NCBI GenBank assembly: GCA_965198105.1
Contig: OZ240240.1
Location: forward strand, 2,803,103-2,867,102
Reading direction: 5' to 3'
Origin: Dehalococcoidia bacterium
GTDB lineage: Bacteria > Chloroflexota > Dehalococcoidia > Lucifugimonadales > CBDBON01
DNA: 64,000 bases
The translations under genes and the position numbers were made by a program. Below are positions 2,496-2,609 of this stretch, piece after piece. The stretch's first letter is position 1, and each line of letters starts with the position of its first letter. Below the pieces are notes generated by a model. That model was not told the origin of the DNA, made no database searches, and saw nothing but the letters and a program-made list of their open reading frames with translations.

Positions 2496-2609
2496 ATGGC
2501 CAGCTACGATCCATCCACGCCCGGCTACGCGCCCACGTCAGCCATAGTCGAACACGCAATGATGCGCGACTGGCGAGTGGTCGGCTTTATGCAATCCGGG
2601 AGGACCTAG
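2496..2609 (+). CDS. 37-aa small peptide A (MASYDPSTPGYAPTSAIVEHAMMRDWRVVGFMQSGRT)
   Basis: AGGAG at 2484-2488, 7 nt before ATG; paralog at 19103-19216 has the same length, RBS and stop, with synonymous codon changes. Confidence 0.7.
   Translation: MASYDPSTPGYAPTSAIVEHAMMRDWRVVGFMQSGRT

Follow-up and report, generated by a model that had tools for sequence, protein, structure and literature searches.

A short open reading frame ahead of duplicated DrrAB-type exporter genes in a Dehalococcoidia bacterium looks like the leader of a ribosome-dependent transcription attenuator

A probable leader peptide gene upstream of an ABC-2 exporter operon

The DNA analyzed here, referred to as the window, is a 64,000-nucleotide stretch of a Dehalococcoidia genome (GenBank assembly GCA_965198105.1, contig OZ240240.1, positions 2,803,103 to 2,867,102) with a G+C content of 62.6%. 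It carries two paralogous modules within a 4.9-kb duplicated segment (2303-7223 and 18912-23881). Both have the layout described in an earlier account of the locus made from the letters alone (hereafter the sequence-only reading), in which a small open reading frame (sORF) of 37 codons is followed by a hairpin and by genes for two ABC-2 permeases, an ABC ATPase, and an S-adenosylmethionine (SAM) methyltransferase. The sORF had been interpreted as encoding a minimal methylated or exported peptide or, alternatively, a regulatory leader peptide. Sequence comparison and RNA folding favor the alternative: the sORF probably encodes a leader peptide whose translation would control, by ribosome-dependent attenuation, transcription of the ABC-2 exporter genes, and the arrangement of sORF, antiterminator, terminator, and stop codon fits attenuator geometry in 11 units. 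The 37-codon mini-gene is real and conserved, and it appears to act as the sensor in an RNA on/off switch rather than to encode a methylated or exported natural product.

In the proposed mechanism, transcription would start approximately 25 nucleotides (nt) upstream of the sORF, and the sequence GGGAGG in the last sORF codons would pair with CCUCCC in the 5' arm of an intrinsic terminator, preventing the terminator hairpin. When translation runs smoothly to the stop codon, the ribosome would cover GGGAGG, the terminator would form, and transcription would end before the permease genes (the OFF state). A ribosome that is slowed, stalled earlier, or not loaded would leave GGGAGG free, so that the antiterminator would form first and RNA polymerase would read through into the genes for the two permeases, the ATPase, and, where present, the methyltransferase (the ON state). 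Because of the analogy with the bmrB leader discussed below and the presence of DrrAB-type exporter genes, the signal may be impaired translation, possibly caused by a ribosome-targeting compound that the pump removes.

Mutually exclusive terminator and antiterminator structures

Every unit scanned contained a terminator stem of 9 to 10 base pairs (bp) followed by a T-tract, and the pair of units at locus L022 (loci in related genomes are numbered L001 and so on) has the same arms and T-tract by inspection. Between the two window copies the terminator arms differ in a compensatory manner, with GGCCTCC/GGGGGCC in one and GACCTCC/GGAGGTC in the other. The GGGAGG sequence duplicates the 3' arm of the terminator (GGAGGYC or GGGAGGUU) and is therefore complementary to the 5' arm, CCUCCC, with which it can pair as an antiterminator. 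It lies 3 nt before the stop codon in the 37-codon units and 9 nt before it in a second class of units with 26-codon sORFs. On both strands of the window and of all loci except L022, the pattern GGGAGG...CCTCC...GGRGG-TTTT was found nowhere but in leader units.

Folding predictions are consistent with a choice between the two structures. The terminator hairpin alone has a predicted energy of -14 to -17 kcal/mol. When the 3' domain, starting just before GGGAGG, was folded as it would stand before the terminator 3' arm exists, the antiterminator was the minimum free energy (MFE) structure in all nine units (-19 to -30 kcal/mol) and consisted of the GGGAGG:CCUCCC core with an extension of 3 to 7 bp. 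The energy of the antiterminator was within a few kcal/mol of that of the full-length MFE structure in most units and equal to it in one. Masking the footprint expected of a ribosome positioned on the stop codon, an in-silico constraint, gave the terminator in 9/9 folds, and in folds of the whole leader the terminator 5' arm paired with the end of the sORF in six of the nine units. In these models, terminator and antiterminator are mutually exclusive and similar in energy, and masking at the stop codon switches the fold; the terminator itself is predicted to work.

Comparison among units points the same way. In the 26-codon class, the internal hairpin and antiterminator were 92.9% paired, compared with 33 to 46% in slid controls, with three pairs changed on both sides, and the hairpin together with the terminator was 100% paired. 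In the 37-codon class, a helix between the Shine-Dalgarno region and the post-stop segment, an inner helix, and the terminator were together 99% paired (slid controls, 26 to 51%), with three compensatory pairs. Pairing of the antiterminator ranged from 89 to 97% across classes, the value for the 37-codon class being 97% but invariant. The small hairpin between the stop codon and the terminator is likewise without variation, so it provides no covariation. These pair counts are supportive of the predicted structures and are not proof of them.

Two further pairings concern the 37-codon class. The post-stop segment at 2611-2624 (GACCUGGCUCUC) is complementary to the unit's own Shine-Dalgarno region at 2477-2490 (GAGACUCAGGAGC), and in L002 this helix carries a compensatory change from CAGG/CCUG to UAGG/CCUA; the pairing may keep ribosomes from re-initiating on leader RNAs that are complete or have been terminated. 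A candidate anti-antiterminator (region 1), in which CCCGG in codons 9-10 can pair with CCGGG in codons 34-35, was found in this class only; no consistent equivalent occurs in the 26-codon class, and region 1 was therefore left out of the model.

Signs of translation of the leader

The features of the sORF that the sequence-only reading had listed were borne out. Both copies have AGGAG-N7-ATG, 37 codons, and the same TAG stop codon; their peptides (MASYDPSTPGYAPTSAIVEHAMMRDWRVVGFMQSGRT for copy 1 and MSSHVPSTSGYAPAPNGIQDSLERDWWRVDFRPSGRT for copy 2) have 18 of 37 residues in common; and synonymous changes account for 6 of the 25 differing codons (P6, S7 with TCC/AGC, Y11, A12, P13, and F31). 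The central part varies, as had been noted, and is among the least conserved stretches of the duplicated segment (60 to 65% identity). A tblastn search of the window with one copy returned the other at an E value of 2e-8, the next match having an E value of 0.07. The description of the gene as unannotated was right only in part, in that copy 2 and one orthologue have already been called as nameless 37-amino-acid proteins (P0001 and P0002).

Several features suggest that the sORF is translated. All sORFs of a class share their ATG, their stop codon, and their exact length, and they contain no indels despite 30 to 50% divergence; indels are present in the flanking 5' untranslated region and post-stop spacer. 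In the nine units examined, frame 1 is always open, and the other frames are interrupted by stop codons in most of them. The stop codon is never farther than one ribosome footprint from GGGAGG. The 37-codon class has the canonical AGGAG-N7-ATG arrangement, and its Shine-Dalgarno sequence is kept in all four units (as TAGGAG in L002).

These observations bear on the possibility that the open frame is incidental and that the choice between antiterminator and terminator is made independently of translation, by an RNA switch that is either riboswitch-like or recognized by an RNA-binding protein. Such a switch would be compatible with the mutually exclusive structures, which exist regardless of translation, with the lack of a Shine-Dalgarno sequence in the 26-codon class, with a peptide sequence that is barely constrained, and with a conserved internal hairpin that shows compensatory changes inside the sORF. 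It would not account for a start, stop, and length that are fixed in each class while the spacers acquire indels, for frame 1 being the sole frame open in all nine units, for the canonical ribosome binding site of the 37-codon class, or for the constant placement of the stop codon relative to GGGAGG. In addition, no leader matched an Rfam family at gathering thresholds (the best, Phe_leader, reached 23.9 bits where the gathering score is 55), and shuffled sequences fold globally just as well. The weak matches to Phe_leader and ctRNA were set aside, as only the terminator aligned. We regard an RNA-only switch as improbable.

A promoter-like sequence, TTGNNG-N17-TGnTANNAT, lies 25 to 40 nt upstream of every unit; it is kept in copy 2, L001, and L002, and the N positions vary. 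A strict sigma-70 scan did not call the putative leader promoters of either window unit. A longer in-frame ORF, open from a TTG at 2343 (88 amino acids) and extending to 238 amino acids in copy 2, was considered and rejected because every upstream difference between the copies is nonsynonymous in that frame.

Constraint on the peptide and on the RNA

The synonymous codons, including the TCC/AGC serine, had been taken as a sign of selection on the protein, an argument that did not withstand comparison of the codon positions. Differences between copy 1 and copy 2 are distributed 16/9/12 over codon positions 1/2/3, and the variable columns of five 26-codon units are distributed 14/13/15; a third-position excess in the sORF was not found. 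The ratio of nonsynonymous to synonymous divergence (dN/dS) is 0.46 to 0.97 for the sORF, compared with 0.11 to 0.39 for four neighboring genes, and dN in the sORF exceeds that of the neighboring permease by a factor of 2.4 to 7, making the leader peptide the fastest-evolving part of the module. By these measures, the peptide appears not to be under protein-type purifying selection.

Constraint is more readily seen in the RNA. The in-frame GGG-AGG (Gly-Arg) is nucleotide identical in all units, whereas other conserved residues vary in synonymous codons; across the window, GGG accounts for 24% of Gly codons and AGG for 21% of Arg codons. The islands PGYA, RDW, and SGRT of the 37-codon class coincide with RNA helices. 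In the RNAalifold consensus, GGC-UAY-GCN (G10-Y11-A12) pairs with CGN-GAC-UGG (R24-D25-W26), and the apparently synonymous changes GCG to GCU (A12) and CGC to CGA (R24) in L002 pair with each other and are thus compensatory. Codons 11 to 17 of the 26-codon class form an 8-bp hairpin (CUCAUGGC...GCUAUGAG), and in L012 unit 1 this hairpin is preserved by two compensatory double changes, the replacements M12A and Y16R, which convert CUCAUGG/CUAUGAG to CUCGCGG/CCGCGAG. Given these RNA-compensatory replacements and synonymous pairs, the synonymous-codon argument does not appear to separate protein from RNA constraint, and several of the replacements favor the latter. What seems to be selected is the frame, the length, and the RNA helices, and not most of the amino acid sequence of the peptide.

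Outside the predicted helices, a few residues stay the same through synonymous codon changes (P6 and F31 among the 37-codon units, T2 and F5 among the 26-codon units). These residues could reflect a dual function, in which the leader is a cis-acting attenuator and the released peptide also acts in trans. A precedent is the trp leader peptide peTrpL of Sinorhizobium meliloti, which is reported to act in trans on a multidrug efflux operon (PMC7298713). The peptides described here diverge rapidly and point to no trans target, and a second role of this kind seems very improbable.

Distribution of leader units

Similar sORFs upstream of homologous permeases, which the sequence-only reading had proposed looking for, were found in Dehalococcoidia genomes. 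Eleven distinct leader units precede homologous permease pairs, four with 37 codons (window copies 1 and 2, L001, and L002) and seven with 26 codons (three in L012, two in L022, and one each in L013 and L016). The leader at L020 is identical to that of copy 2 and adds no information. P0001 and P0002 were the only matches in the protein database in a word-indexed search, and the contig of the orthologue, L001, carries the same module beside the same M24 peptidase neighbor. The third 37-codon variant, in L002 (MACHVPTTPDYAPASVRIDSPVMRDWRGVGFVPSGRT), has a permease 93% identical to that of copy 1 and a peptide only 57% identical. The L002 leader is a mosaic, with an N-terminal half like that of copy 2 and a permease like that of copy 1.

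An exhaustive profile search of 1.84 billion representative proteins recovered P0001, P0002, and two spurious long repeat proteins, with no further member, and neither Pfam nor NCBIfam has a family for the leader peptide. Searches of Joint Genome Institute (JGI) metagenomes returned no matches to the DNA pattern TCCGGGAGGACCTAG-N8-13-TCACAGCGTGAGTCA and no confirmed matches to the permease profile.

The permease family itself comprises 69 clusters at an E value of 1e-10 or lower, mostly 58 to 70% identical, and its pairs are often arrayed in tandem, two or three together, ahead of a single ATPase gene and without a methyltransferase. In L012, L013, L016, and L022, gaps of 240 to 400 nt before the pairs contain uncalled 26-codon ORFs (for example, one encoding MTFPFENHRDLMATSYEWPALGRNQS), each followed by a terminator. 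In the arrays at L012:4760-10600, L013:5600-8600, L016:7600-10600, and L022:7700-12560, two or three successive units, each made up of a promoter, a 26-codon leader, a terminator, and a permease pair, lie ahead of one shared ATPase gene. Each permease pair in these arrays seems to be gated separately.

A more speculative extension is that the fast-diverging leaders are compound-specific arrest sensors and the arrays a modular efflux battery, or that the leaders are released and exported as signals matched to the permeases. We think neither version likely. If the sensor version were true, arrest in the ribosome tunnel would depend on a drug or metabolite, and each unit of leader, terminator, and permease pair would be individually inducible.

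The methyltransferase and the possibility of a peptide product

The methyltransferase appears not to be a conserved partner of the leader peptide. It was found only with the window copies, L001, and L020 and is absent from five of the seven other leader-bearing regions (L002, L012, L013, L016, and L022); L002, for example, has the sORF, the permeases, and the ATPase and no methyltransferase. Homologues with 71 to 78% identity adjoin unrelated genes. The protein matches only generic class I SAM methyltransferase models, with trans-aconitate/BioC-type models far below cut-off, and its profile and structure matches gave no support for a ribosomal RNA- or peptide-methyltransferase function. The best solved structure was LahSB (E = 9e-6, covering the SAM-binding core only), a lanthipeptide-cluster methyltransferase.

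The sequence-only reading had remarked that no cyclase, radical SAM, or YcaO enzyme lies in the window, and this was upheld over the region scanned. A Pfam scan of 842-40714 (29 ORFs, 30 queries) identified transporters, insertion sequence (IS) elements, DarT/DarG-like genes, a recombinase, and a sigma factor, and it identified no maturase of ribosomally synthesized and posttranslationally modified peptides (RiPPs), whether LanB/C/M, YcaO, radical SAM, ATP-grasp, or lasso cyclase.

It is nevertheless conceivable that the sORF encodes a functional peptide, whether RiPP-like, methylated or exported, a signal, or a bacteriocin with an export or immunity transporter, and that the hairpin is a leaky terminator setting the ratio of peptide to transporter. 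Lantibiotic precursor genes have a leaky terminator downstream. The strong Shine-Dalgarno sequence and the conserved frame and length would suit a peptide product, and the order of peptide gene, hairpin, two ABC-2 permeases, and ATPase resembles that of LanFEG-type protection modules, the ATPase matching TIGR03740 ("lantibiotic protection ABC transporter") with an E value of 2e-42, well below the model cut-off. Within the duplicated module, divergence is greatest in the peptide and the permeases; every permease pair of the tandem arrays comes with its own distinct peptide; and LahSB is the best structural match of the methyltransferase, through its SAM core. This interpretation has to contend with the absence of a RiPP maturase from the scanned region and of the methyltransferase from most sORF-bearing modules, its close homologues being elsewhere. 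The peptide evolves fast, its conserved residues fall on RNA stems, and some of its replacements are RNA compensatory. By inspection, the leader peptides are hydrophilic and near neutral and show neither a leader/core nor a double-glycine pattern; they belong to no family in Pfam, NCBIfam, or the large profile search; and peptide and permease have not diverged together, as the comparison of copy 1 with L002 shows. The proposal of a minimal methylated or exported peptide is therefore not one we retain, and we hold a functional peptide of any of these kinds to be unlikely.

Evidence weighing against attenuation

Attenuation by a translating ribosome remains the favored explanation, and several observations count against it. 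In three of the nine whole-leader folds, the terminator arm took another partner, and the MFE of the whole leader was no better than that of shuffled sequences (z = -0.22). The 6-bp core of the antiterminator is invariant and so has no covariation support of its own. Shuffled alignments matched the observed covariation in 10 to 58 of 500 cases over the two length classes (four and seven sequences), and the covariation comes from few events, several of the double changes being from one sequence. A Shine-Dalgarno sequence is missing from the 26-codon sORFs, although only 7 of 21 window genes have one. Neither a run of codons for a single amino acid nor a known arrest motif was seen in the sORFs, which makes the sensed signal proposed above a guess. 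Finally, five homologous permease pairs have no leader (those at L003, L015, and L021, which have one genomic context in common, the first pair of L013, and L016:6001).

Genomic context

The exporter is of the DrrAB type, with two PF01061 membrane domains and an ATPase that combines PF00005 and PF13732. The ATPase scored 281 bits against TIGR01188, below the cut-off of 312, and is therefore a relative and not an equivalog. Coordinates of the module components are given in Table 1. The start of the unit 1 methyltransferase gene was placed by comparison with copy 2, the longest ORF beginning at 5272.

Table 1. Components of the two leader-exporter units in the window
Feature	Position	Strand	Details
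Putative promoter, unit 1	2433-2461	+	-35 TTGCTG (2433-2438), 17-nt spacer, extended -10 TGC-TAATAT (2453-2461); inferred by reading the sequence
Shine-Dalgarno sequence, copy 1	2484-2488	+	AGGAG, 7 nt 5' of ATG
Leader sORF, copy 1	2496-2609	+	37 codons plus TAG (2607-2609); frame indel-free in all homologues
Proposed antiterminator 5' strand	2598-2603	+	GGGAGG, codons 35-36 (Gly-Arg); pairs with CCUCCC 2643-2648 in truncated-transcript folds
Small hairpin between stop and terminator	2620-2632	+	CTCAC-AGC-GTGAG; invariant, 100% paired
Predicted intrinsic terminator, unit 1	2638-2669	+	Stem 2638-2664, CCTCCC 2643-2648, then T-tract
ABC-2 permease 1, unit 1	2696-3526	+	PF01061, E = 9e-17
ABC-2 permease 2, unit 1	3523-4314	+	PF01061, E = 1e-6
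DrrA-like ABC ATPase, unit 1	4341-5315	+	PF00005 and PF13732; TIGR01188 (drrA), E = 1e-83
Class I SAM methyltransferase, unit 1	5332-6111	+	Co-oriented with module; not a conserved member
Putative promoter, unit 2	19040-19068	+	TTGCCG-N17-TGT-TAGCAT
Shine-Dalgarno sequence, copy 2	19091-19095	+	AGGAG; precedes ATG at 19103
Leader sORF, copy 2	19103-19216	+	37 codons plus TAG; GGGAGG 19205-19210; called as protein P0001
Predicted intrinsic terminator, unit 2	19244-19273	+	Hairpin 19244-19268; terminator scan
Unit 2 genes	19299-22698	+	Permease 19299-20129, permease 20126-20914, ATPase 20940-21902, methyltransferase 21919-22698

Identity along the duplicated segment is mosaic, being approximately 95% in the ATPase and methyltransferase genes, 65 to 90% in the permease genes, and among the lowest values in the center of the leader sORF; this divergence pattern suggests gene conversion or recombination between the copies. 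The best genome matches are metagenome-assembled Dehalococcoidia.

A block of approximately 130 nt located 5' of the leader promoter (2303-2431, 18912-19039, and L001:8274-8402) begins exactly at the duplication boundary. Identity among L001 and both window copies is approximately 93%, which exceeds the conservation of the sORF. The block is absent from L002 and hence not part of the core switch. It contains TTCCGAG-N6-CTCGGGA, which is a hairpin or palindrome, together with an imperfect inverted repeat of some length (GCCGGTCATTTCGG ... CCGAAGTTGCYGGC) overlapping the -35 element. Examined as RNA, the copy at 2303-2431 had no compensatory pairs and gave z values of -0.4 (plus strand) and -1.9 (minus strand), and no coding signal, Rfam match, or covariation was found in the block. 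Conceivably, the block serves as an operator region or as a small RNA.

The modules sit in an IS-rich region that also contains a serine recombinase and a DarT/DarG-like pair. The 56 bases immediately beyond the right-hand boundary of the copy 1 segment (7224-7279) recur inverted and 98% identical at L020:5558-5612, just upstream of the left end of a copy-2-type segment; they may be a mobile-element inverted repeat or a recombination scar. An ABC exporter gene 3' of copy 1 (around 6191-7456, minus strand) is apparently truncated at the insertion boundary, 7223/7224. Insertion sequences (8084-11173, 11269-12153, 33402-34022, and 52040-52972) include two copies of an IS110-type transposase (8084-9016 and 52040-52972), and an IS21-like istA/istB pair (9384-11173), together with a DUF772 transposase and a fragment of a Mutator-family transposase. 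On the minus strand, a gene for a DarT-like single-stranded DNA ADP-ribosyltransferase (14223-14912) is flanked by genes for an ADP-ribosylglycohydrolase-domain protein (12451-14226) and a UvrD-like helicase (14917-16320), forming a DarTG-like toxin-antitoxin or defense locus (12451-16320) beside the large serine recombinase gene (16863-18572). Convergent with module 2, the minus strand carries a pair of fused type I ABC exporter genes (22765-24573 and 24570-26393) and a third DrrAB-like set, consisting of an ATPase gene (26473-27483) and two permease genes (27525-28301 and 28314-29186); the GGGAGG/CCTCCC leader motif was not found upstream of this set (26473-29186).

Comparison with known systems

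If the attenuator interpretation is correct, these leaders would be a clear case of ribosome-dependent attenuation in the Dehalococcoidia (Chloroflexota), controlling DrrAB-type exporters that are present in multiple copies and tandem arrays, and they would point to inducible efflux in environmental bacteria, possibly in answer to translation inhibitors. We know of no described attenuator in the Dehalococcoidia, although the literature was not searched for one. The leaders also hold a caution for sORF mining, in that RNA pairing alone can yield conserved residues and apparently synonymous changes; here, the Gly-Arg codons and the GYA and RDW islands are helix strands. Before a small ORF of this kind is called a peptide natural product, its RNA should be examined for alternative terminator and antiterminator structures.

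The module shares with lantibiotic and other RiPP precursor genes linked to LanFEG transporters a small peptide gene, a hairpin, two ABC-2 permeases, and one ATPase. Unlike those systems, it has no maturase and no leader/core organization, its peptide appears free of purifying selection, and its methyltransferase is not a conserved partner. The amino acid biosynthetic leaders trpL, pheL, and hisL provide a parallel in regulation, with a leader ORF, alternative hairpins, an intrinsic terminator, and, in the model proposed here, a ribosome at the stop codon that would mask the antiterminator segment as it does in those leaders. The leaders described here differ from them in having no run of codons for a regulatory amino acid and in preceding exporter rather than biosynthetic genes, and they are distinct from the Rfam Phe_leader family, which they resemble through the terminator only and at a score far under the gathering value.

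Antibiotic-responsive leader ORF attenuators of resistance genes are known from vmlR of Bacillus subtilis (PMC9226507) and from msrD (PMC10314930). These likewise combine an upstream ORF and a terminator ahead of a resistance-type ABC gene, with the ribosome as the sensor, a role that is proposed for it here. Unlike vmlR and msrD, which encode ABC-F ribosome-protection proteins and have defined drug-dependent arrest peptides, the genes described here encode a membrane exporter, and their leaders have no recognizable arrest motif.

The closest studied analogue appears to be bmrB-bmrCD of Bacillus subtilis, in which a translated leader ORF of 53 amino acids with a terminator and antiterminator precedes genes for an ABC exporter inducible by ribosome-targeting antibiotics (PMC4191407). 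Both systems have a short ORF upstream of ABC exporter genes on the same transcript and an intrinsic terminator with an alternative antiterminator, and in both models efficient translation leads to termination and slowed translation to read-through. They differ in that the bmrB terminator lies inside the ORF, whereas here the terminator lies 28 to 29 nt after the stop codon and only the 5' strand of the antiterminator is in the ORF. The bmrCD exporter is a fused type I heterodimer, and the exporter here is an ABC-2 (DrrAB-type) permease pair with a separate ATPase. There is no sequence similarity to bmrB, and the host is an uncultured Dehalococcoidia lineage whose related genomes carry tandem arrays of leaders and permease pairs, the switch here being proposed from sequence and folding. 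What is new is an unnamed leader family with a recurring GGGAGG/CCUCCC/GGGAGG design and an unusual deployment in tandem arrays; the attenuation mechanism itself is textbook.

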